Of a stretch of 14,733 nt of DNA, positions 1,369 to 14,733 are shown piece after piece (the first letter of the stretch is position 1; every line of letters starts with the position of its first letter). The notes under the pieces are model-generated. The model was not told the DNA's origin and did no database searches. It was given only the letters and a program-made list of their open reading frames with translations. The stretch is from IMG/VR virus record IMGVR_UViG_2778261529_000003. The stretch is one strand, 5' to 3'. A program made the position numbers and the translations under genes. The stretch is from a virus. Taxonomy: Duplodnaviria > Heunggongvirae > Uroviricota > Caudoviricetes.

Positions 1369-1444
1369 GCCGATATAGCTCAGTTGGTAGAGCAGCGCAT
1401 TCGTAATGCGAAGGTCGTAGGTTCGACTCCTATTATCGGCACCA
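1369..1444 (+). tRNA. thrW: tRNA-Thr (anticodon CGU), 76 nt including CCA
   Basis: GCCGATA acceptor stem paired with TATCGGC, D-arm GCTCAGTTGGTAGAGC, anticodon loop TTCGTAA (anticodon CGT), T-arm GGTTCGACTCC, 3' CCA at 1442-1444. It lies directly downstream of proA as in E. coli. Confidence 0.93.
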
Positions 1445-2825: not shown

Positions 2826-2953
2826 CTGGTTGAGTATACAGTAGTAGACTTTGAGCGACGAAAGAAAAGGCTGTGTCTAGGGTCGCTCCCGAAAATCCGT
2901 ACACCTCGACGGACTGGTACAGCCACTACAGTAGAGGACGCTGAGGTGTGCGT

Positions 2954-3751
2954 ATGATTGATATTCATGCCGAATTAAACGAATACAAAAAAGATTTTAT
3001 TTCTTTACGTGAATTTCTTGAGGTCGTGCTTAAGGTCGCTGGTGATGATTATGATGTTTCAGATGTCATAACTTGGATACTCAGGAGAATAAGCGGAGAA
3101 CATATCCGCCTGTACACAGTAAATGAATTTAAGCTGTTGGAATCTTTTTGTAACCCGTATCGGGATGAATTTGATAATGATGTTCTTTATAGAAATCTGA
3201 ATGCGGTTCGGAAACGTGGTTGTTTACCTGGTGAGAGGGATGAAAATGGTTTTCTGGTGTCCGGTTATTGGGAAGATCCCGAATTTGAGAACATTGGATT
3301 TATAAGGGGTGAAATTTTCGCAATTTTTCCCGATGTCCTTGACGCGTTAACGAAGCTGGAAGGCGCTAACTCTTCTGAAAATGACGAGGCACAAGGACGC
3401 GATATTGAAAAGAAAGAGTTGCGTACAGAGGATGATTTATTATCCCAAATCGCAATGCTGGAAAAAGAAAACGCAGAGTTAAGGGCAAGGATAGAGCAGT
3501 TAGAGCAAGAGCGCCCGATACACTTATATAAATACTGGGATAAAGACCCATTAGCTAAGGCTATTGAGATTAGAAACAGAGAGTGGGCCAATTACGATCC
3601 AGAAAATGATTTTGCCACCAGGGGAAATCAAGAAGCGATAACCAGGGAGCTTAAGCAGTGGGGGGCAAGTAATGCACTTGCAACGCTCATAGAGAGGACT
3701 GCCTGCCCTATTAACCGAGACAACAGCCAAAAGAACGCAAAGCCGGATTAA
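2954..3751 (+). CDS. hypothetical protein, AT-rich orphan with C-terminal coiled-coil
   Basis: 265-aa ORF (ATG 2954, GAGG 7 nt upstream, TAA 3749-3751). GC is markedly lower than its neighbours. Predicted coiled-coil segment LLSQIAMLEKENAELRARIEQLEQE. No family recognised by eye. Confidence 0.6.
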   Translation: MIDIHAELNEYKKDFISLREFLEVVLKVAGDDYDVSDVITWILRRISGEHIRLYTVNEFKLLESFCNPYRDEFDNDVLYRNLNAVRKRGCLPGERDENGFLVSGYWEDPEFENIGFIRGEIFAIFPDVLDALTKLEGANSSENDEAQGRDIEKKELRTEDDLLSQIAMLEKENAELRARIEQLEQERPIHLYKYWDKDPLAKAIEIRNREWANYDPENDFATRGNQEAITRELKQWGASNALATLIERTACPINRDNSQKNAKPD

Positions 3752-4253: not shown

Positions 4254-5054
4254 ATGAAATTTCCAAAAACGCCCGTACAGGGGCGGGGCTTCGTTCGGCC
4301 TGAAAACCAGAATCTGCAAAATTTCGGCGAAATTATCCCGGTTATTTCCGGCATTATTGGCGGGTGTGAAACCAATATTGTTAGCGCCAGAGCGTTGCAT
4401 AAGGCGTTAGGTGTAGGTCGCGTTTTCCGTTCGTGGATCAAGGGGCGCATTGAAGAATACGGCTTCACGGAAGGCGTGGATTATGAGGTTGTTGAATATT
4501 TGAGCCGACCCGATCCGGTGAGCGCAAAATCTCGCCAGCAAACAGCTCTTGAGTACATCATTACCGTGAACATGGCAAAAGAACTGGCGATGGTCGAACG
4601 CACCGAACAGGGCCGCGCCGTTCGCCAGTACTTCATCAAATGCGAGGAGGAGCTACACAAGGTAGCGCCAGTGCGTTCCGCAGCTTTACGCCGGGAACTG
4701 AAAGCCCGTATCACCGTTGCCAGCTACTTTAAGCCAATGTGTGCCGCGCTGGAGGCGTACCGGGCTGAACTGGGTAAAAACACGCTCCAGCACCATTACA
4801 CCACGGAAGCCAATATGCTGGCGCGTATCGTGCTGGGTGGCATGACTGCAAAACAGTGGGCGCAGGCGAACGGCATCACAGGCGAACCACGCGACCACAT
4901 GAGCACATTGCAGCTTGAGCACCTTTCTTACCTTGAGCAGAGCAATATCACGCTGATTGAGTTAGGCCAGGACTACCACCAGCGGAAAGCTGAATTAATT
5001 CGTCTTTCGCAGCGTTGGTTAGCCCGTCGCATGGAGGAAAACAGCCATGTGTAA
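4254..5054 (+). CDS. phage antirepressor-like protein (AntA-type N-terminal domain)
   Basis: 266-aa ORF, ATG 4254 with AGGAG upstream. N-terminal ISARALHKALGVGRVFRSWIKGRIEEYGFTEGVDYEV resembles the AntA/AntB antirepressor domain. Confidence 0.7.
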   Translation: MKFPKTPVQGRGFVRPENQNLQNFGEIIPVISGIIGGCETNIVSARALHKALGVGRVFRSWIKGRIEEYGFTEGVDYEVVEYLSRPDPVSAKSRQQTALEYIITVNMAKELAMVERTEQGRAVRQYFIKCEEELHKVAPVRSAALRRELKARITVASYFKPMCAALEAYRAELGKNTLQHHYTTEANMLARIVLGGMTAKQWAQANGITGEPRDHMSTLQLEHLSYLEQSNITLIELGQDYHQRKAELIRLSQRWLARRMEENSHV

Positions 5055-5720
5055 CGCTCTGACCGTTACAAAAAGAGAAAGCGCCCCGTTGCCGGAGCGC
5101 CTTTGTGAACAAATCGCTTACTGCGCCATATTGTTTACTGCCTTTCGGGCAGATTATAGCGTTGTGGTCGCACAGAGTGAAGGCGCTGATCACTGTTACT
5201 ACAGTACGCCAGAAATGCAGAATATTTTGCTGCAAAATGCCGTTAGCCACGCTGTCCGGAAAGCAAAAAATTTTGCTGGTGGCGCGACTGATGCGATTTT
5301 GTCAGGTCACCAGGTGCTGATCAATCTGATGTCTGATTTCGTTCTGGATAAAACAAAGGCGACTGCAGAGGGCCACCAGTGGGAAAGCTACACACTTGAA
5401 CACATTGCCAACAATGCCAGATTTGCGGCTGGTGGGCAATGTGATCAGTGTGCTGGCTTGCTGGTGGGCTATTCATGCTCTTTAACATTGCCATGCCGCG
5501 ATGTTTTCCAGGTATGCGATCCCATTTTTGTGCGCCTGTACTCTTTAAGGAATTGCTCAAGGGCAAAAGCACATGGCGCGAATCTTTCTGATTCATGCTC
5601 TATCTTTCTGCGCCGTCTTTTCCGTGCCGGTGATGGTGTATTGGTTGATTCTTTGTTGGTCATTCTGTGTACCTGTAAAGCAATGCGCCGGAGTTCCTCA
5701 CACCACGGCGATGATAGTTA

Positions 5721-5900
5721 TTATTCTGATTCTTTGGCCTTGCGGCGCTGGCGGCGTTTGATCTCGCCTTTTGCGGCAGTAACTAAAAAACCAGCGGTAC
5801 TTTCGCCAGGTTCTTTAAGTTGCTCAATATCATCCATTACTTCATGTGGGATTCTGACAGTTGTCATTTGTGATTTTGCGTTTTTTGCACCAGTTGCCAT
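5721..5900 (-). CDS. small ribbon-helix-helix (Arc/MetJ/CopG-like) DNA-binding protein, candidate island repressor
   Basis: 59-aa ORF from the internal ATG of the 5721..6077 minus ORF, with AGGAG 9 nt upstream. MATGAKNAKSQMTTVRIPHEVMDDIEQLKEPGESTAGFLVTAAKGEIKRRQRRKAKESE has a beta-strand then two helices, the RHH pattern. Transcribed divergently from the replication operon. Confidence 0.6.
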   Translation of the reverse strand: MATGAKNAKSQMTTVRIPHEVMDDIEQLKEPGESTAGFLVTAAKGEIKRRQRRKAKESE

Positions 5901-5966
5901 TTCTGGATCTCCTAAAAATTGGTGTATGTCAGTATACGCAAAAAAAATGATAAAAAAAGGCTTGAA

Positions 5967-6012
5967 GTGTATTTCACCAGTGAGTAAATTAAAAAGCAAA
6001 GGTGAAATACAC
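5967..6012. promoter_or_regulatory. perfect 12-bp inverted repeat GTGTATTTCACC (21-bp spacer) GGTGAAATACAC, candidate operator in the divergent intergenic region
   Basis: Read directly. Located between the RHH gene start (5900) and the first rightward small ORF (6094), flanked by A-tracts. Confidence 0.5.
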
Positions 6013-6093
6013 CTAAAAGAGCAACGCCCCGCAGTGCTCGCAACACATGCAGGGCGTCTAACCACCAACGATAGCAAGAGTATCGAGGTAGCT

Positions 6094-6297
6094 ATGGGAA
6101 ATCATACCACACACCCGCAAGGGCGGGACTCGCACAACCTGAATAAATACATCTGGCGTTTTATCGCCCTGAGCACGGCACAACCGCGCGTAATTCACAT
6201 CGAGGCCATCAGCGAACAGGAAGCACGCCAGCAATCTCCTGATGGCTGTGTGATGGTATTCGCCGCCCGTATTCGTCAGGGGGTAAGCCATGCATAA
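6094..6297 (+). CDS. hypothetical small protein (67 aa)
   Basis: ATG 6094 with GAGG upstream. Ends in SHA-stop with the 8-nt overlap junction CATGCATAA onto the next gene. This is the terminal segment of the long 5047..6297 frame, so the start is uncertain. Confidence 0.35.
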   Translation: MGNHTTHPQGRDSHNLNKYIWRFIALSTAQPRVIHIEAISEQEARQQSPDGCVMVFAARIRQGVSHA

Positions 6298-7078: not shown

Positions 7079-7369
7079 ATGAAAAAGAAAAATTCTGGCT
7101 TTACTGCCAGCGGTCTCTCTCGGCCTGAAATCAGACACGGAGATATTTACCGCGACACCAGACGTGGGGGACGAGTGGTTATTCGTCACGTTACGCCAGG
7201 CAATATCACCTACCGCCGTGAGGCTTACGAATATGACTGTGTAATGCCGCGCCGTCAGTTTGAGCGTGATTTTATTCTGGTTGAAAACAAACAACAGGCG
7301 GTGGCGAGACGTGCAGCCACGAATATTAAAAAAATCCGGGCAATGTTGGTTGCGGGAGGTAAGAAGTGA
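7079..7369 (+). CDS. hypothetical basic protein (96 aa)
   Basis: ATG 7079. Stop TGA overlaps the GTG start of the downstream replication gene (GTGA), indicating the same operon. Confidence 0.5.
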   Translation: MKKKNSGFTASGLSRPEIRHGDIYRDTRRGGRVVIRHVTPGNITYRREAYEYDCVMPRRQFERDFILVENKQQAVARRAATNIKKIRAMLVAGGKK

Positions 7370-9171
7370 AAAACGCACCGAATTTAAAATATCAGCCGAA
7401 GGATAAATTCACCGAGGTAATCATTTTGGCCGGGACGGATGCTTACGCCCATGCTCAACACTGGATTGAAAGCGAAGGACGAAAACACGGCGATAACGTA
7501 CCACCTGTTTACCTGGGGCCGAAGCAACTGGCAGACCTGGCGAATATCCGCATTATTGACGAGAAACGCCGCTTTGCGCGTGTCTATCTTGCGGGGGAGA
7601 TCGAGCCAATCCAGATCAATGCTATCGCTGAAAAACTGGCGCTGGCTGGCGTACAGGACGCGAAATTATACAAAGGTATCACCGATCGGGAGCCGGAAAA
7701 CTGGCGCGACTACCTGCAACGGATCCGCGAACAGGCAGAGAGTGGGGAAGTTTCGGCGATGAAATTAGCCACAAAAAATATTGACCTACCCAGGCCAGCA
7801 CTAAATCAGATGGGAGCCAGCCAGAGAGGGGAAGTGTTACTTGAATATTATGGAAGAGCACTGGCTATAAATGATGATTCTGATGTAGTTCACCATTACA
7901 ACGGAATTGTCTGGGTGCCTGTATCTGATAAGGAACTCCAGCGGTCTATGGCGAAGATTTTTATTGATGCTGGAATCAGTTATTCGCAAAACGCCATTAA
8001 ATTTGCCGTAGACACAATGAAATTGAGCCTGCCTGTTATGGGCGGGGCTGACAGGAATCTTATTGGATTCAGTAACGGGGTATTTGATACCAGGACAGGA
8101 AATTTTCGGGAGCACAACAAAAATGACTGGTTGTTAAATGCCAGTGAATTACCGTTCAGCCCACCAGCAGAGGGGGAAACGCTGGCAACACATGCGCCGA
8201 ATTTCTGGAAGTGGTTGCGTCGTTCGGTGGCAGATAATGATCGTAAAGCTGATCGCGTACTGGCGGCATTATTCATGGTACTGGCGAACCGGTACGACTG
8301 GCAGTTATTCCTTGAGGTAACTGGCCCAGGCGGAAGCGGTAAAAGTGTGATGGCGGAGATTTGTACCATGCTGGCTGGTAAGGCCAACACAGTATCGGCA
8401 AGCATGAAGGCGCTGGAAGACGCAAGGGAACGCGCGTTAGTCGTTGGCTTTTCGCTGATTATCATGCCGGATATGGCCCGCTACGCTGGAGATGGTGCAG
8501 GAATTAAGGCAATTACTGGCGGCGACAAGGTGGCAATCGACCCGAAACATAAAGCCCCCTACTCCACACGTATTCCGGCGGTAGTGCTGGCAGTAAACAA
8601 TAACGCCATGTCATTCAGTGATCGCAGTGGAGGGATCTCGCGTCGTAGGGTGATATTTAATTTCTCTGAGGTCGTACCGGAGAACGAACGCGATCCCATG
8701 CTGGTGGAAAAAATAGAAGGCGAACTGGCGGTAGTGATTCGCCACCTGCTTACTCGTTTTTCTGACCAGGATGAAGCCAGACGTCTGTTATATGAGCAGC
8801 AGAAATCAGAAGAGGCACTGGTGATAAAACGCGAGGGTGATTCACTGGTGGACTTTTGCGGCTATCTGATGTCGTTGGTTAAATGTGAAGGAATGATGGT
8901 GGGCAATGCGGAAATAGTGCCATTTAGCCCGAGGCGGTACCTGTATCATGCTTATTTAGCCTATATGTCAGCGCATGGCCTGGGAAAACCAGTATCACTG
9001 ACACGCTTTGGTACAGATATGCCAGGAGCTATGGCGGAATACGGAAAGGAGTATAAGCGGGCTAAATGCACTAAAGGCCAGGATAAAGGGCGAGTGATAA
9101 CAAATGTTCTGTTAGATGATGATGCTGATGGTTGGTTGCCAGCAGCAACAGGGATTAACGACAGAACATAA
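7366..9171 (+). CDS. replication initiator: D5_N domain plus SF3 helicase (P4 alpha C-terminal-like primase/helicase family)
   Basis: 601-aa ORF, GTG start with GGAGG upstream. Walker A GPGGSGKS; D5_N-like segment NGVFDTRTGNFREHNKNDW. Followed immediately by an iteron array. Confidence 0.88.
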   Translation: MKNAPNLKYQPKDKFTEVIILAGTDAYAHAQHWIESEGRKHGDNVPPVYLGPKQLADLANIRIIDEKRRFARVYLAGEIEPIQINAIAEKLALAGVQDAKLYKGITDREPENWRDYLQRIREQAESGEVSAMKLATKNIDLPRPALNQMGASQRGEVLLEYYGRALAINDDSDVVHHYNGIVWVPVSDKELQRSMAKIFIDAGISYSQNAIKFAVDTMKLSLPVMGGADRNLIGFSNGVFDTRTGNFREHNKNDWLLNASELPFSPPAEGETLATHAPNFWKWLRRSVADNDRKADRVLAALFMVLANRYDWQLFLEVTGPGGSGKSVMAEICTMLAGKANTVSASMKALEDARERALVVGFSLIIMPDMARYAGDGAGIKAITGGDKVAIDPKHKAPYSTRIPAVVLAVNNNAMSFSDRSGGISRRRVIFNFSEVVPENERDPMLVEKIEGELAVVIRHLLTRFSDQDEARRLLYEQQKSEEALVIKREGDSLVDFCGYLMSLVKCEGMMVGNAEIVPFSPRRYLYHAYLAYMSAHGLGKPVSLTRFGTDMPGAMAEYGKEYKRAKCTKGQDKGRVITNVLLDDDADGWLPAATGINDRT

Positions 9172-9198: not shown

Positions 9199-9540
9199 GG
9201 TAGACGGTTGGTAGACAGATTCACTTAACTCTCTACCAACCATCTACCAATTAATATTTTGAATTATAAAGATATTTTCAATGTGGTAGAGAGGTGGACA
9301 GTTATTTCTATATTCCTAAACCACGGGGGGTATATAAAAAAACAGATAGTTAAGGGTTCATTTTTTAAATTTCTCTTTTAACTGTCTACACTGTCTACCA
9401 TTTAGTAAAAATCATTAATTATCAATGTATTAATGCGGTAGACAGTTAGTAGACAGTTTGCAGATTGTTTTTTTGTTATGAGTTAATAACATTAAATAAA
9501 TCAATAAATTATATCGGTAGACAGTTGGTAGACAGTTGTA
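9199..9540. repeat. iteron-type replication origin: about 12 copies of GGTAGACAGTT in pairs at 11-bp phasing, both orientations, separated by AT-rich tracts
   Basis: Pairs at 9199-9220, 9232-9250 (inverted), 9284-9305, 9380-9400 (inverted), 9436-9460 and 9515-9540. AT-rich candidate unwinding element around 9305-9370. Confidence 0.8.
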
Positions 9541-9543
9541 ACG

Positions 9544-10086
9544 ATGGGGCAAAGCATGACTAAGCTGACCATTAACAGAAAACCGAAAGGCATTTATGGC
9601 ACGCCGCAGAAAACGACGCAGGTGGCACAGGAGCAGGATAAAACCACGTCGGCGCATAAAGTGATGCCCGGTAACCAGAAAGCGCAGCAGAAGCCCACAG
9701 GGGCGACACCGTGGCGGCATATGACCAAGCGCCAGCGCAAAAACCGCAGGCGCATTAACCGCCTCACTGAGTTGTGGCCTGAATTATTCAGTCGGGAAGC
9801 ACCGAAGCCGCTTAAGGTGGGGATATTCGACGACCTGATGCAGGATCTCGCCGTCAGGGGGCTGGCATTCGGTCCAGGGGCATTGCGTGCGACGCTGGCA
9901 TCTTATGCACAGTGTCCGCGCTATTACCGCGCCTTAATGGCTGGTGGGGTACGCTACGACCTGAAAGGCCAGCCGTGCGGCGAGGTGACACCACAGGAAC
10001 AACAGGACGCAGAAACGCGGCTGGTGGCGCTGAATGAGAAGCGCAAACGTCAGCGCCGGGTAGCAAAGGAGAAAACAGGCGCATGA
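9544..10086 (+). CDS. FinO/ProQ-domain RNA-binding protein (RNA chaperone-like)
   Basis: 180-aa ORF (alternative start ATG 9556 with GGGG upstream). Core LTELWPELFSREAPKPLKVGIFDDLMQDLAVRGLAFGPGALRATLASYAQCPRYYRALMAGGVRYDLKGQPCGEVTPQE closely resembles the ProQ N-terminal/FinO domain. Basic tail. Confidence 0.7.
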   Translation: MGQSMTKLTINRKPKGIYGTPQKTTQVAQEQDKTTSAHKVMPGNQKAQQKPTGATPWRHMTKRQRKNRRRINRLTELWPELFSREAPKPLKVGIFDDLMQDLAVRGLAFGPGALRATLASYAQCPRYYRALMAGGVRYDLKGQPCGEVTPQEQQDAETRLVALNEKRKRQRRVAKEKTGA

Positions 10087-10370
10087 TTCACGACAGCAAA
10101 GCGGAAGCACTGGAAGCGCGTGGTCTGTACCGGAGAGCGGCGGCGCGGTGGGCTGAGGTCATCATGCTGGCGAATGATGACAAGGCACGGGAACAGGCGG
10201 CAAAACGTCGCGCGGAATGTATCCGCAAGGCAGCACGCCCACCAGCAAGGCAGGATAATTTCGGGGAGATGCGCGAAACCATCAGCCGGGCACATGCCGG
10301 GATGGGATTACATCAGCCCAATGGTAAGGCATTCAGGAAATACCCTGGATCGAAAAATTGCAGTCAGTGA
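10083..10370 (+). CDS. PerC-family transcriptional regulator-like protein
   Basis: 95-aa ORF; ATGA overlap with the upstream stop. Motif LEARGLYRRAAARW ... KRRAEC ... PPARQDNFGE matches the PerC/Pch pattern as I recall it. Not verified by search. Confidence 0.55.
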   Translation: MIHDSKAEALEARGLYRRAAARWAEVIMLANDDKAREQAAKRRAECIRKAARPPARQDNFGEMRETISRAHAGMGLHQPNGKAFRKYPGSKNCSQ

Positions 10371-10375
10371 CGGAG

Positions 10376-10399
10376 GCCGGGATTTTTCCCGGCTTTTTT
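10376..10399 (+). terminator. Rho-independent terminator (GCCGGG / CCCGGC stem, 6-nt loop, T6 tail)
   Basis: Hairpin and U-tract read directly, 6 bp after the PerC-like stop. Confidence 0.7.
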
Positions 10400-10405
10400 G
10401 TGCCA

Positions 10406-10446
10406 GTAAAAAGCCCGCAGCCAGAAGTGTTGCGGGCTTTGTTTTT
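10406..10446. terminator. second, possibly bidirectional terminator (AAAGCCCGCA / TGCGGGCTTT stem, A-tract 5', T-tract 3')
   Basis: 10-bp perfect stem with 11-nt loop, flanked by AAAAA upstream and GTTTTTC downstream. Confidence 0.6.
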
Positions 10447-10571
10447 CAGGTGATTGAAGTCAATGGGAAGAACGCGATCATCATGCGTTATCGTTTCATA
10501 AATTGCAATAATGTAGATCGTCATTTCAGTTTATGCAATCATAACCATTGTTTTGTTCAGGAGATATGACT

Positions 10572-10745: not shown

Positions 10746-10784
10746 TGGTCGTGATTTTTTGGTGAAAAAAGAGAGGTGGTAAAA

Positions 10785-11363
10785 ATGCCAGCAAGCAAAG
10801 AAGATTTGCGATTAAAACTGATGGAGGTGGTTAACGCTCTGTCAGAGTCGCAGGGAAGCACTCCGCAGGAGATTATCGAAATTCTGAATGCGATCCCCGC
10901 ACAGGATTTCATAAAAGAGGATAACGCGAATCAAAACATCGTCGCGTCAGTCGAAGATGAATCCTCACTGGCAGAAGCCCAGGCTAAAGCGGATTCCGCA
11001 TACAGCAATATGGGCCGTCGCGCTCCGGCCCCGTTTGCTGGTGAAAAGTCGATGGATTACCGCAAACGTGCATTAATTGGCGCACAGAAGCTGGCTAAAA
11101 AATTCAGTGATGTGGATATTCGTTCCGTTTCAGATTCTGCAACGCTGGCGGTGCTGGAAGATCAGATTTACAAGGCTGCTCAGGAAAGTGCTCAGTGGGC
11201 CGTGGAAAACACGCCGGGCCATTTGGGTAAAACCGTAAGAATGGATGAAGCCGGTCGTCGTATTACTGAATATCAAGGAGATCCGAACGTCTGGCTGAAC
11301 GCCTTCAAAATCCCTCCCCGTCGCCTGGTCAAAATTAACGTTGCAAGCCTCGCGGGGGCATGA
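10785..11363 (+). CDS. hypothetical protein (192 aa)
   Basis: ATG 10785 with GAGAGGTGG upstream. Acidic, helical-looking; no family recognised. Confidence 0.55.
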   Translation: MPASKEDLRLKLMEVVNALSESQGSTPQEIIEILNAIPAQDFIKEDNANQNIVASVEDESSLAEAQAKADSAYSNMGRRAPAPFAGEKSMDYRKRALIGAQKLAKKFSDVDIRSVSDSATLAVLEDQIYKAAQESAQWAVENTPGHLGKTVRMDEAGRRITEYQGDPNVWLNAFKIPPRRLVKINVASLAGA

Positions 11364-11380
11364 AAAACGTGCTGAGTTCA

Positions 11381-11410
11381 GCCCTGCCGGATTTGGCGGG
11401 GCTTATTGCT
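11381..11410 (+). terminator. weak hairpin (GCCCTGCC / GGCGGGGC, one G-U pair) followed by TTATTGCTTAT
   Basis: Read directly. Poor U-tract, so may be an attenuator or RNA processing site rather than a terminator. Confidence 0.3.
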
Positions 11411-11427
11411 TATAACCGGATAACATT

Positions 11428-12099
11428 ATGCTTTTAACAGAAATTGAGGCGGCGAAGCAGGTTCGGGACGGACAGCTACCGTCGCCTTATCAGTTTTCCA
11501 ACATGTGGCTGGTTAACCTGCGTATCACAGGAACCGGAATGGCCTACCGCGCCGAAGAAAAAGAATTTGTCTGGCGTTCACCGCAAACTTATCTCAATCC
11601 GCAGTTCCTGGAACGTTGCGCCGGAGTACCCGTCATTATCGACCATCCCGAAAGCAAAACCCTTGAAGACGTGGGCGAACGGTCGCGCATTATTGGCACC
11701 GTCATGTTGCCGTATATTCGCGGTGACGAGGTGTGGGGCGTATGCCGGATTTACGGGCAGGAAATCATCGATTACATCCAGAAAGCACGGGGGGAGGTAT
11801 CCACCAGCCCGTCGGTTGTGTTTTGTGGTGCGTCCGGTGGGGCTGAAGTTCCTGATGTAATGGGCGAGGACAATTTTTTTATTGAGGGTACGCCATTTCT
11901 TATCGATCACGTTGCGCTCGTGCCGCTTGGTGTTTGGGATAAGGGCGGGAAACCATCGGGCGTGGAAGTAACAACGCCGACAGCAGAAGAACAGCTTGCC
12001 GGAATGGTCCGGGACGTTATTGATGCGGCCTGCAAGCCAGCCCTGGAAAAACTGGAAGAAATATCCGGGCGGCTGGCTCAACTGGAAAAAGAAGGGTGA
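11428..12099 (+). CDS. hypothetical protein (223 aa)
   Basis: Protein-like composition in this frame only. The competing 11444..11860 alternative-frame and 11578..12138 antisense ORFs have implausible composition. No obvious Shine-Dalgarno at ATG 11428. Confidence 0.5.
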   Translation: MLLTEIEAAKQVRDGQLPSPYQFSNMWLVNLRITGTGMAYRAEEKEFVWRSPQTYLNPQFLERCAGVPVIIDHPESKTLEDVGERSRIIGTVMLPYIRGDEVWGVCRIYGQEIIDYIQKARGEVSTSPSVVFCGASGGAEVPDVMGEDNFFIEGTPFLIDHVALVPLGVWDKGGKPSGVEVTTPTAEEQLAGMVRDVIDAACKPALEKLEEISGRLAQLEKEG

Positions 12100-12105
12100 G
12101 TCATA

Positions 12106-12633
12106 ATGCTGATGAGTAAGGCAGAATATGCCAAACACAAAGGCGTAAGCCGCCAGACAGTTTACGACTGGATCGATAAAGGCGAAGTGGTCATGTCCGG
12201 TAAAAAAATCGATGTGGAAGCGACAGAGCAGCGGAACAGCCCACCTGCACAGGGAAAAGACACAGTTTCTGAAATGTGGCCAGAGAGAACGCTGGAAATG
12301 ACGTGGGGCGAGTTCTGGAAAGCAGTTAAGGCCAGAGGCGGTAAAATTCCTGCGCCAGCAACGGACGAGGGCATACAGCAGCGTGTGCTGGATGCAGCCG
12401 GGGAATTAGGCTGGGAAGTGCACTTTCTTGATGATGGTGCTATCTGCCTTGAGGATTGCGACGGGCAGCATTACTTTGAACAATACAATTTGCGAGGTAA
12501 TGCCAGGCTGGCAATTCGTATGCTGCGTTGCGAACTCTGCTATGTTGCAGGTGATTATCCCGATGAACTGGAATCATGGAGTGAAGCCGGGCTAAACGCC
12601 CTGGCTGAATGGGAAAAATCAGACCATCAATGA
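12106..12633 (+). CDS. Nu1/terminase-small-subunit-like HTH protein; candidate packaging-redirection (Rpp-like) factor
   Basis: 175-aa ORF. N-terminus MSKAEYAKHKGVSRQTVYDWIDKGEV has the Nu1-type winged-HTH pattern (compare lambda Nu1 KKQLADIFGASIRTIQNWQEQG). Last gene before a repeat array. Confidence 0.55.
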   Translation: MLMSKAEYAKHKGVSRQTVYDWIDKGEVVMSGKKIDVEATEQRNSPPAQGKDTVSEMWPERTLEMTWGEFWKAVKARGGKIPAPATDEGIQQRVLDAAGELGWEVHFLDDGAICLEDCDGQHYFEQYNLRGNARLAIRMLRCELCYVAGDYPDELESWSEAGLNALAEWEKSDHQ

Positions 12634-13125: not shown

Positions 13126-13953
13126 ATGATAAACTTAGATATGGATGTTGTGGTTGGACATGGGCAGAACGATTTTGAAGAATTAGAAATGAATTCCGGC
13201 ATAAAGGTTTTTGCTGGAGCTTCTGACATCACCCAAATTACAACAAGCACTATTTTAGATGATTCAGTCCCCAAAAAATCAACCTCTATACATGGGCTTA
13301 GGAATATGTTCAAACATACATTTGATGGATCGTTTGGACAAAATTTTGAACTTAGAATTGATGATCCTGAAAAGATAAAAAGATTTAATGAAATTGGCAG
13401 GGGTGTTTTTTTTGATGTTATGTCATATTACATCTCTAAAGGAATGGGAATAGCTCACCATCTTAAGAGCCAGAAAGCAATCGACTTAGTAGAGCGTCTT
13501 AAACCGCTTGAAAAACAACTTTTGATAAGAATTCAGGAACCTATACAGAATTTACATAAAACAGTTGAGAAACAAAAATATAATGTACTTCTGAGAAGAA
13601 GAACACCAACTAAAAAATTAGTTGTTGCTAAAATGGATACGCAGACGCTCTTCAATATCAATGTAGAGCATGAATCTGCTCAACCAGTAGAAGAAAATGT
13701 TATTATAACTAGGTTTAATATGTTAACAGGAACTGGTCGATTGTTATTAGATAGACAGTCAGATTCAATTGCCTTTAGACACCATCTTAATTGGGAACAT
13801 GTATTGCAGTCTCAGAAAAATAAGTTTTCAAGGAATCTTGATAGGAATAACAGAGGTGGTAAAGACGCTTTTATACCTATAACCATTTCTGCTTATGAGT
13901 TGCGCGATCATATTGGAGAGCTAAAGGCTTATATAATTAGAGAAATATTGTAA
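13126..13953 (+). CDS. hypothetical soluble protein (275 aa), first gene of an AT-rich cargo operon
   Basis: Long ORF in strongly AT-rich DNA, K/N/I-rich codon usage unlike the island core. Stop TAA 13951-13953 directly abuts the next ATG. No family recognised. Confidence 0.65.
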   Translation: MINLDMDVVVGHGQNDFEELEMNSGIKVFAGASDITQITTSTILDDSVPKKSTSIHGLRNMFKHTFDGSFGQNFELRIDDPEKIKRFNEIGRGVFFDVMSYYISKGMGIAHHLKSQKAIDLVERLKPLEKQLLIRIQEPIQNLHKTVEKQKYNVLLRRRTPTKKLVVAKMDTQTLFNINVEHESAQPVEENVIITRFNMLTGTGRLLLDRQSDSIAFRHHLNWEHVLQSQKNKFSRNLDRNNRGGKDAFIPITISAYELRDHIGELKAYIIREIL

Positions 13954-14733
13954 ATGAAGATGCCCTCAATCAAAGTTATTTCACTTATATTAATAGCTAT
14001 TGTATGGTATTTTTACTTTTCTCATTTCAATCATTGGGATAGCCCGTTAGATATCTTTAATGCTAGCAAATGGATGGGTTTTTCCAATGATAAAGGTGAT
14101 TGGGGCACTTTCGGGGATTTTGTAGGAGGTGTGCTTAATCCTATCTTGACCTTCATTACAATTGTTATGCTCATTAATTCCTTGAAACTTCAACGAGAAG
14201 CAAACGAGCAACTAATTAAAGACGAAAGAAGACAAGAGAAAGACGTTCTTCTAAAACGGTTTGAAGACGGTTTTTATAACCTTATCTCTTCAGAAAGAGA
14301 GGAGTTTAGTTGTTTTACTATTAACATTAACGGAAAAGAATACCGCTCATCTGCTGCTGTTAGTGAATTGGAAGAGGCAATATGGGCTTTTATTGAGAAA
14401 CAAATAGATGAAAAAGGAGCTTGCGAAATTGAGGATGTTAAAAATTACATAAATAAAATTGATGAGGATTCATCTATGGCAATATTTTCCATGGTGCGAT
14501 GTGTATATGTTGTTTTTAAGGTTGTTAAGGATAAATGCCCTGAAGAACATCAAGATTACTACTTAGATATTTTTATGAATATGTTACCAGTTAAACTGGT
14601 AAATTTAGTTGCTATTGTGTCTGTGTATATGGACTGGAAAAACGTAAAATATATTATTGATGGTGGAAAAGGATTTTCGGATAATGAAGCAGTTAAAGAA
14701 TATATTAATACTTGGAAGGAGTTTCATGAATAA
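13954..14733 (+). CDS. hypothetical membrane protein (259 aa) with two N-terminal transmembrane helices, candidate effector
   Basis: Hydrophobic segments VISLILIAIVWYFYFSHF and FGDFVGGVLNPILTFITIVMLINSL, then a charged, probably helical cytoplasmic domain. Zero-nt intergenic spacing from the upstream gene. Confidence 0.7.
   Translation: MKMPSIKVISLILIAIVWYFYFSHFNHWDSPLDIFNASKWMGFSNDKGDWGTFGDFVGGVLNPILTFITIVMLINSLKLQREANEQLIKDERRQEKDVLLKRFEDGFYNLISSEREEFSCFTININGKEYRSSAAVSELEEAIWAFIEKQIDEKGACEIEDVKNYINKIDEDSSMAIFSMVRCVYVVFKVVKDKCPEEHQDYYLDIFMNMLPVKLVNLVAIVSVYMDWKNVKYIIDGGKGFSDNEAVKEYINTWKEFHE

Follow-up and report, generated by a model that had tools for sequence, protein, structure and literature searches.

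A FinO-like and PerC-like gene pair behind the replication origin of an AlpA-type phage-inducible chromosomal island

Introduction

Proteins with a FinO domain are found in E. coli as the chromosomal ProQ and on mobile elements, where those of plasmids and phages are believed to work on a narrow RNA target specific to the element (PMC9977716). ProQ/FinO-like genes have also been noted at annotation level in phage satellites (PMC13612085, PMC13230959), and for the FinO-like proteins of phage-inducible chromosomal islands (PICIs) we found annotation-level mentions only and no functional study in the literature. Here we describe one such gene in a DNA stretch of 14,733 nucleotides, IMG/VR virus record IMGVR_UViG_2778261529_000003, which we refer to as the window. 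The gene runs directly into a second one, for a PerC-family regulator, and together the two form an operon, probably an accessory one, in a slot of variable content that separates the iteron origin of an AlpA-type PICI from its packaging genes.

The PerC family is known from several settings. PerC of enteropathogenic E. coli (EPEC) and PchA, PchB and PchC of enterohaemorrhagic E. coli (EHEC) activate the LEE1 promoter (LEE, locus of enterocyte effacement), and silencing is relieved by Pch proteins, which bind to AT-rich DNA covered by H-NS (PMC4764244). The main effects of PchE are higher expression of flagellar genes and less curli and adhesion, its overexpression increasing ler only 2.1-fold (PMC7369912). 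PerC genes are documented in PICIs as well (PMC6092414, PMC11773190); one of them, EcCIMP1_025, represses LEE1 (PMC11773190), and the homologues borne by EcCICFT073 and EcCIEDL933 had no effect on LEE1 according to what PMC11773190 relays of Porter 2005.

A described counterpart of our locus is that of pchE in O-island 51 of O157:H7 (EcCIEDL933), an island of the same kind whose post-origin slot likewise holds a PerC-family gene, with a similar terminator hairpin behind it. The partners of pchE are genes for a small hypothetical protein and a single-stranded DNA-binding protein (SSB), not a FinO-like gene, and the O157 island is capsid-forming. In O157, 5' rapid amplification of cDNA ends revealed a polycistronic ECs1586-ECs1587-pchE mRNA with its 5' end 10 nt upstream of ECs1586; this mRNA is made in uninduced cells, and SOS induction lowers it 2-3 fold (PMC7369912).

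Results

A FinO-domain protein that is neither FinO nor ProQ

The product of the upstream gene (Table 1) matches the Pfam ProQ/FINO profile (PF04352) over positions 4-108 of 109 (E 1.2e-23, 83.6 bits vs a cutoff of 27). Its sequence matches among solved structures are led by the N-terminal domain of E. coli ProQ (5nb9, 5.9e-12) and FinO (1dvo, 1.6e-10) and also include NMB1681 and RocC. The ATG at 9556 is the likely start codon, favoured both by the alignment of homologues and by the annotation of a 99% identical copy by the Prokaryotic Genome Annotation Pipeline (PGAP); residue numbers used below are those of the 180-residue open reading frame, counted from the ATG at 9544. In the AlphaFold2 model, a disordered basic tail (1-55) is followed by a helix (62-77), the FinO core (94-147, with a predicted local distance difference test score of 87-96) and a long C-terminal helix (150-179). 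When the model was searched with Foldseek, the 26 best PDB matches were all FinO, NMB1681, RocC or Lpp1663, with a probability of 1.00 each, and they included the RocC-terminator complex; FinO itself was the best structural match (E 1.8e-6).

The protein resembles FinO of the F-like plasmids in its domain, its basic flexible N-terminal extension, its long flanking helices and its carriage on a mobile element. With chromosomal ProQ it shares the residues R58, Y70 and R80, which align to R115, Y127 and R137. Within the FinO-like subfamily R137 is invariant and R115 and Y127 are at least 90% conserved, and in ProQ Y70 and R80 belong to the pocket that holds the RNA 3' end, as PMC12001967 reports from Kim 2022. 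Unlike ProQ, the protein has neither linker nor C-terminal Tudor domain, the modelled chain ending in one long helix directly after the FinO core, and its gene is island-borne and strain-variable. A further difference from both proteins lies in the helix that is thought to set ligand specificity and whose K125 and R129 in FinO contact the base of the hairpin (PMC12001967): Ala and Gln stand here in place of K125 and R129 of FinO and of R62 and S66 of ProQ.

The score of the protein falls short of the NCBIfam cutoff for FinO (64.4 bits vs 136) as well as of that for the ProQ equivalog (58.1 bits vs 127). No tra genes occur in the gene list of the island part in the window and no FinP-like RNA was found there with Rfam; nor does the window hold a traJ-like target, and the element is a phage satellite rather than a conjugative plasmid. 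FopA of pCol1B9 is likewise a small FinO-domain protein on a mobile element, whose partner is the Inc antisense RNA of repZ, and no equivalent RNA was found in the window. Judged by sequence and model, the protein is a member of the FinO-domain family with a FinO-like architecture and neither FinO nor ProQ proper. The preliminary description of this locus, made from the sequence alone, had called it FinO/ProQ-like, a label that is right as to family and fold and too close to the two named proteins. By analogy with its relatives it would be expected to bind RNA terminators, and the residues of its specificity helix suggest an RNA preference different from those of both ProQ and FinO.

A PerC protein of the PchE-like branch

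The downstream product matches the Pfam PerC profile (PF06069) over positions 1-89 of 90 (E 2.2e-32, 111.6 bits vs a cutoff of 22.6), so that profile searches, together with the fold of the FinO core, bear out both domain assignments of the preliminary description. Residues Y16, R17, R18, R22, W23, C46 and R85 are invariant across 29 PerC homologues, and the YRR..RW core is shared with EPEC PerC and EHEC PchA/B/C. The model of the protein comprises an N-terminal three-helix unit similar to a tetratricopeptide repeat (1-50), a fourth helix (60-73) and a flexible tail. Over its N-terminal half the protein shares 91% identity with a cluster to which NCBI gives the name PchE; identity is 51% to the full PerC protein of locus L011, the capsid-forming island of O157:H7, and only about 36-46% to the copies on plasmids of the EPEC adherence factor (EAF) type.

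These comparisons place the window PerC in the PchE-like branch. The preliminary description had pointed to activation of virulence loci as the known activity of the family. Such activation is not expected here, because the protein is PchE-like and the PICI-borne homologues are reportedly inactive on LEE1 or repress it (PMC11773190). By analogy, the product may instead be a PchE-type modulator of transcription.

A conserved coupling junction and lineage-dependent terminators

A scan of one genome per species yielded two loci only (in E. ruysiae and E. albertii), and IMG/VR and E. coli genomes were sampled instead. The satellite sample consists of 80 IMG/VR loci and the window (81 loci), whose FinO-like genes form 19 clusters at 92% identity. 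The ATGA overlap by which the two genes had been proposed to be translationally coupled is present in the window, behind a ribosome-binding sequence (Table 1), and the junction GCGCATGATTC is kept in clusters of the order FinO>PerC down to 70% FinO identity.

Downstream of the pair lie two hairpins that fit the pattern of intrinsic terminators and are here taken as predicted terminators T1 and T2. Both hairpins of the preliminary description are real in the sense that none of 200 shuffles folds as well as either (RNAfold; T1, -18.3 kcal/mol, z -3.4; T2, -20.9 kcal/mol, z -5.3). T1 begins 2 nt past the perC stop codon. A consensus terminator scan lists T2 only, and a separate scan and RNAfold both find T1, which was likely missed because G-U pairing lengthens its stem into its own U-tract. 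The two hairpins resemble ProQ-type terminator ligands, and in T2 the A-rich 5' flank pairs with the first U residues of the tail, a feature reported for such ligands (PMC12001967). Read on the minus strand, T2 also gives a hairpin followed by UUUUU (-16.7 kcal/mol), and it could terminate in both directions. An Rfam match to Bacillus ncr1175 at 10374-10443 was discarded: it reaches 32 bits vs a gathering score of 60 and merely reflects the two hairpins.

As in the window, the cassette has terminators behind it in many relatives. T1 is conserved in L001, L014, L025, L090 and L092, and in the last four of these T2 occurs as variants with the same stem base and a different upper stem or loop. 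Of the 34 closest loci, 17 share the tandem arrangement, which is also seen in Citrobacter and in two clusters further away; in these copies the stem base of T2 is constant and its upper stem or loop variable. The O157 island has a hairpin similar to T1 behind PchE. Elsewhere a lineage may have a single terminator, a degenerate T1 or no terminator, so the closure by two terminators that had been described for the module holds for the window and for some lineages only.

The promoter of the operon is probably located in or upstream of the origin region (9199-9538). When the O157 start site is mapped onto the equivalent locus L011, it falls within the primase-origin intergenic region.

The operon occupies the post-origin slot of an AlpA-type PICI

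Reading from its start, the window carries proA, tRNA-Thr(CGU), a tyrosine integrase gene, an int-alpA RNA motif, alpA, the gene for an AntA antirepressor, an RgdR-like DUF4222 gene and a gene for a D5/P4-type primase. Profile searches and repeat analysis thus identify int, alpA, primase, an iteron origin and a tRNA att site, and no tail or lysis genes, in the part of the island that lies within the window; the right end and attR are beyond it. On the basis of the int, alpA and primase genes, the origin layout and the att core, we assign the element to the Gram-negative AlpA-type PICIs, in agreement with the earlier proposal of a phage satellite.

The origin stretch between the primase gene and the FinO-like gene has a GC content of 0.36. 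Its first inverted iteron pair (9199-9248), just past the primase stop codon, could form a 20-bp hairpin, and its last pair ends 17 nt ahead of the likely start codon of the FinO-like gene. Sister islands have the same layout with iteron sequences of their own (TAACCCGCA, GGGACAAS and GGTAGAGG), and the layout agrees with that described for Gram-negative PICIs (PMC6092414). On the other side, the pair is followed by prohead-protease-like and TerS-like genes and then by an AT-rich cargo region.

The att core TCCTATTATC lies in the 3' end of the tRNA gene. The same core and the same integration site, tRNA-Thr between proA and yagU, are used by EcCIMP1 of E. coli MP1, also an AlpA-type PICI with a PerC-family gene (PMC11773190). 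By its published description, EcCIMP1 has a second, inverted alpA and another gene order, and no FinO-like gene is mentioned (PMC11773190). We considered whether the window could be EcCIMP1; despite the common att site this seems unlikely, as the published gene order differs.

Table 1. Positions of the operon and of its landmarks in the window
Feature	Position	Strand	Details
tRNA-Thr(CGU)	1369-1444		beside proA; island integration site
D5/P4-type primase gene	7366-9171		
Island replication origin	9199..9538		iterons GGTAGACAGTT in both orientations around an AT-rich core; from repeat families and inverted repeats
FinO-domain protein gene	9556..10086	+	176 aa (MTKL...) from the likely start; longest open reading frame 9544-10086, 180 aa
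Translational-coupling junction	10066..10086	+	AAGGAG 10066-10071, 11-nt spacer, ATG 10083-10085 overlapping TGA 10084-10086 (ATGA)
PerC-family (PchE-like) regulator gene	10083..10370	+	95 aa
Predicted intrinsic terminator T1	10372..10399	+	stem 10372-10397, core GCCGGGA-UUUU-UCCCGGC, then U6
Predicted intrinsic terminator T2	10410..10446	+	stem 10410-10440, 12-13 bp, then GUUUUU

The two genes are linked strongly but one-sidedly

In E. coli genomes the pair bears the PGAP labels "ProQ/FINO family protein" and "PerC family transcriptional regulator". DNA nearly identical to that of the pair is present in 328 of 5426 complete E. coli genomes and is always chromosomal. At the sensitivity of blastn, relatives of the FinO-like gene occur in 1175 and relatives of the PerC gene in 1176 of the 5426 (about 22% each). 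Relatives of either gene are found in 1912 genomes and, by inclusion-exclusion, of both in about 439, and matches to a single gene begin or end at the gene junction.

Among the satellites, PerC or a remnant of it adjoins the FinO-like gene in 15 of the 19 clusters: it abuts the FinO-like gene downstream in 13, precedes it in one with reversed order, and survives in one as a frameshifted remnant behind an inserted gene of 138 aa. Three clusters (18 loci) have the FinO-like gene without PerC. The same pairing is seen in islands of Salmonella and Citrobacter. The FinO and PerC identities are correlated (Spearman 0.73 over 91 pairs that are not independent of one another), yet FinO copies that are 91-92% identical may carry PerC copies that are only 60-62% identical, which shows that PerC alleles are exchanged at the junction.

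PerC is also found with no FinO-like gene: in the O157 island, where it takes the same slot, on a 12-kb circular "plasmid" that resembles a satellite, on many plasmids and in other islands. The FinO-like gene without PerC is found in islands that are not PICIs. The post-origin slot is a shuffled cassette in which hyp85, SSB, FinO-like, PerC and hyp82 genes appear in varying combinations. The linkage of the FinO-like gene to PerC is therefore strong but one-sided, and it is not obligatory, as the three clusters with the FinO-like gene only and the roughly 439 of 1912 genomes with both attest. The two-gene module put forward in the preliminary description stands insofar as the pair exists and is usually adjacent; as a fixed unit it does not, since PerC is often alone and its alleles are swapped. 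Both families are almost absent from sequenced phages (7 weak FinO-like and 2 PerC matches), and neither protein matches any PADLOC model.

Several of these loci are worth noting in their own right. The circular record (L010, NZ_CP148430.1, 1-12152) is 12,152 bp long, is labelled a plasmid and encodes an integrase, a TOPRIM/DUF927 primase, AntA, an Icd-like protein, DUF4222 and PerC; it has the look of a satellite, excised or episomal, and not of a plasmid. The gene of 138 aa follows the FinO-like gene in the most widespread FinO-like variant (L004, 7479-8120; also L005-L007 and L093-L096), and the PerC remnant past it is unannotated, frameshifted and closest to PchE. In L019, L020, L021 and L106, FinO-like relatives with about 75-79% DNA identity in the domain reside in a different class of genomic island, facing a UCP030791-type gene in convergent orientation and with AlpA-like and YagK/YfjJ (inovirus Gp2-like) genes close by; one of these islands adjoins a dnd phosphorothioation cluster.

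Other features of the window

The int-alpA RNA motif (RF02996, 2870-2937, plus strand) scores 45.5 bits vs a gathering score of 35.8 in Rfam and is a candidate structured RNA, by sequence match, on the same island as a FinO-domain protein. Just 3' of it is a 267-aa open reading frame (2948-3751) with no family match in Pfam-independent libraries. The DUF4222 protein (7079-7369, plus strand), whose gene overlaps the primase start, is a homologue of RgdR, through which the O157 island regulates type III secretion and motility, and has HGD in place of the functionally important RGD motif of RgdR.

Around the antA stop codon the minus strand offers a strong terminator (11-bp stem 5103-5078, then a U-rich tail) just past that codon, and the best sigma-70-like site of the window (5181-5153, 10/12 matches) is situated about 45 nt upstream of it. 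The interval 5068-5181 could encode a small minus-strand RNA of about 80 nt or be the end of a ylcI/ynfO transcript. At 5047-6297, PGAP annotates minus-strand YlcI/YnfO and plus-strand Icd-like genes in a near-identical island, and the 416-aa open reading frame listed there is probably spurious. The corresponding place of a sister island (L003, 2242-2430) holds the isrK and C4 antisense RNAs, for which the window gave no Rfam match at that position.

Adjacent open reading frames of 195 and 223 aa in the packaging-side module (10776-12633) match different parts of the 545-aa profile phrog_6216, the latter being DUF2213- and prohead-protease-like as well. The 175-aa protein that follows has a TerS-like N-terminal helix-turn-helix and no sequence match to solved structures in the PDB, so no link to Rpp/RppC is shown. 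The cargo region (13126-14733, GC 0.33-0.35) is at the typical position of PICI defence cargo. It encodes a 275-aa protein matching phrog_13337, at whose place sister island L001 has an annotated DUF4747 family gene, and a membrane protein matching phrog_8999, which extends beyond the window; its only match to a defence model is a weak one to PADLOC PDC-M02B (2.4e-4).

Discussion

We favour, with a probability of about 0.5, the reading that the two genes are a resident-state accessory operon of an AlpA-type PICI, encoding an RNA-terminator-binding protein and a PchE-type modulator. By analogy with the ECs1586-ECs1587-pchE unit of O157, the operon would be transcribed from a promoter in or at the origin, independently of island induction, and transcription would end at T1/T2, so that a resident island would express both regulators while the downstream packaging genes remain silent. 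In a narrow set of RNAs, the FinO-like protein would bind terminator hairpins at their lower stem and U-tail and then protect RNA 3' ends or aid antisense pairing; candidates are the 3' end of its own mRNA, antisense RNAs of the island or helper and host transcripts. The PerC-like protein might alter the transcription of AT-rich, H-NS-silenced genes (flagella, curli, LEE-type loci), acting at the protein-protein or nucleoid level and not through a classical DNA-binding fold. The two genes would be co-inherited and co-expressed, and a common target is not required.

Several observations weigh against this reading. A sigma-70 scan of the origin region gave matches at chance level only, and no convincing promoter adjoins the operon, so read-through from an AlpA-driven primase operon is possible. 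No RNA partner was identified, an Rfam search with E up to 1 returning no known small RNA within the module or next to it. Across the window as a whole, the number of terminator-like sites is near chance (24 vs 16.8 +/- 4.6 in shuffles). This count is also why we dropped the lead of an antisense RNA within the finO-like gene, where the minus-strand terminator-like sites (9764-9748 and 9605-9589) have stems of 5 bp only. The site beside the origin, near SSB genes in sister islands, would suit a role in replication or the life cycle equally well, and episomal Vibrio satellites have a ProQ/FinO-like regulator among their plasmid-maintenance functions, beside parA and repA (PMC13230959). Lastly, the near-constant adjacency of PerC in satellites may mean that the two proteins are functionally coupled rather than independent.

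Such coupling could take the form of a dedicated pair, in which the FinO-like protein sets PerC levels through the T1/T2 end of the finO-perC message, another structure in it or an antisense RNA, or in which both act on one target pathway, post-transcriptionally and transcriptionally. The conserved overlap and junction speak for it, as do the 15 of 19 clusters with PerC or its remnant at hand, an adjacency that is retained in reversed order and outlasts replacement of the PerC allele, and the ProQ-ligand features of T2. We nevertheless consider it unlikely, given the 18 loci in which the FinO-like gene has no PerC, the solitary FinO-like genes of non-PICI islands, the wide occurrence of PerC by itself in satellites, plasmids and other islands and the small share that have DNA relatives of both genes among the E. 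coli genomes with relatives of either; in addition, the terminators behind the cassette vary by lineage and several lineages have none. Control of the satellite's own life cycle would be a parallel to FinO/FinP-traJ and FopA/Inc-repZ; plasmid FinO-domain proteins control transfer or replication of their own element (PMC9977716). Here, the FinO-like protein would govern replication, or the switch from replication to packaging, via an island RNA, and PerC would activate the packaging operon. The position of the cassette, with the iteron origin immediately before it and the packaging genes behind it, fits this, as do the operon-like block shared with an SSB gene in sister islands and the Vibrio listing, and the lack of a good sigma-70 promoter ahead of the packaging genes (10447-10571) would agree with an activator-dependent one. 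Against it, many functional-looking satellites do without one or both genes, the work on EcCICFT073 and EcCIMP1 credits AlpA, Pri-Rep, Rpp and Int and gives PerC no role (PMC6092414, PMC6739421, PMC11773190), O157 pchE is expressed in the uninduced state and declines on SOS induction, and no antisense RNA was found by Rfam or by the terminator scan of the window. We therefore hold this explanation doubtful too.

A part in satellite-helper conflict, which the preliminary description had raised, appears very improbable to us, and neither it nor the post-transcriptional reprogramming proposed alongside it gains direct support from our results. In that case the FinO-like protein would sequester or destabilise RNAs of helper or competitor phages and PerC would misregulate phage promoters. 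Genes for interference and defence are among the cargo of PICIs (PMC6092414, PMC13612085), superinfection immunity owes something to EcCIMP1, through a gene that the study did not map (PMC11773190), and host ProQ binds prophage RNAs (PMC9977716), but the module lies outside the AT-rich cargo region, which is at the island's 3' end, neither protein matches a PADLOC defence model, and the near-absence of both families from sequenced phages gives no sign of an arms-race distribution. A bolder and tentative idea, to which we give little weight, is that E. coli has, in addition to ProQ and plasmid FinO, a third and separate class of FinO-type RNA chaperones in the satellite FinO-domain proteins, a class with its own specificity helix and its own small RNA regulon, and functionally tied to PerC. 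If that were true, these proteins could, for instance, make the perC message or an antisense RNA of the island more stable, and a resident satellite would adjust motility and adhesion genes of its host, or its own replication, by one coupled switch of RNA and transcription.

Both gene families are already known and annotated and are common in E. coli. What the present analysis adds is the architecture of the slot, the asymmetric linkage of the genes, the conserved coupling junction and the divergent specificity helix, and its practical value lies in defined constructs and RNAs for testing rather than in a new kind of system. On plasmids, each FinO-domain protein uses one RNA pair to govern a key decision of the element that carries it, and the satellite protein could likewise govern satellite replication or exploitation of the helper, or could add strain-specific post-transcriptional control alongside Hfq and ProQ. 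Its usual neighbour, a PchE-type PerC, is already tied to the expression of flagella, curli and LEE in pathogenic strains, which makes the operon a plausible route by which resident satellites may change the behaviour of their host.

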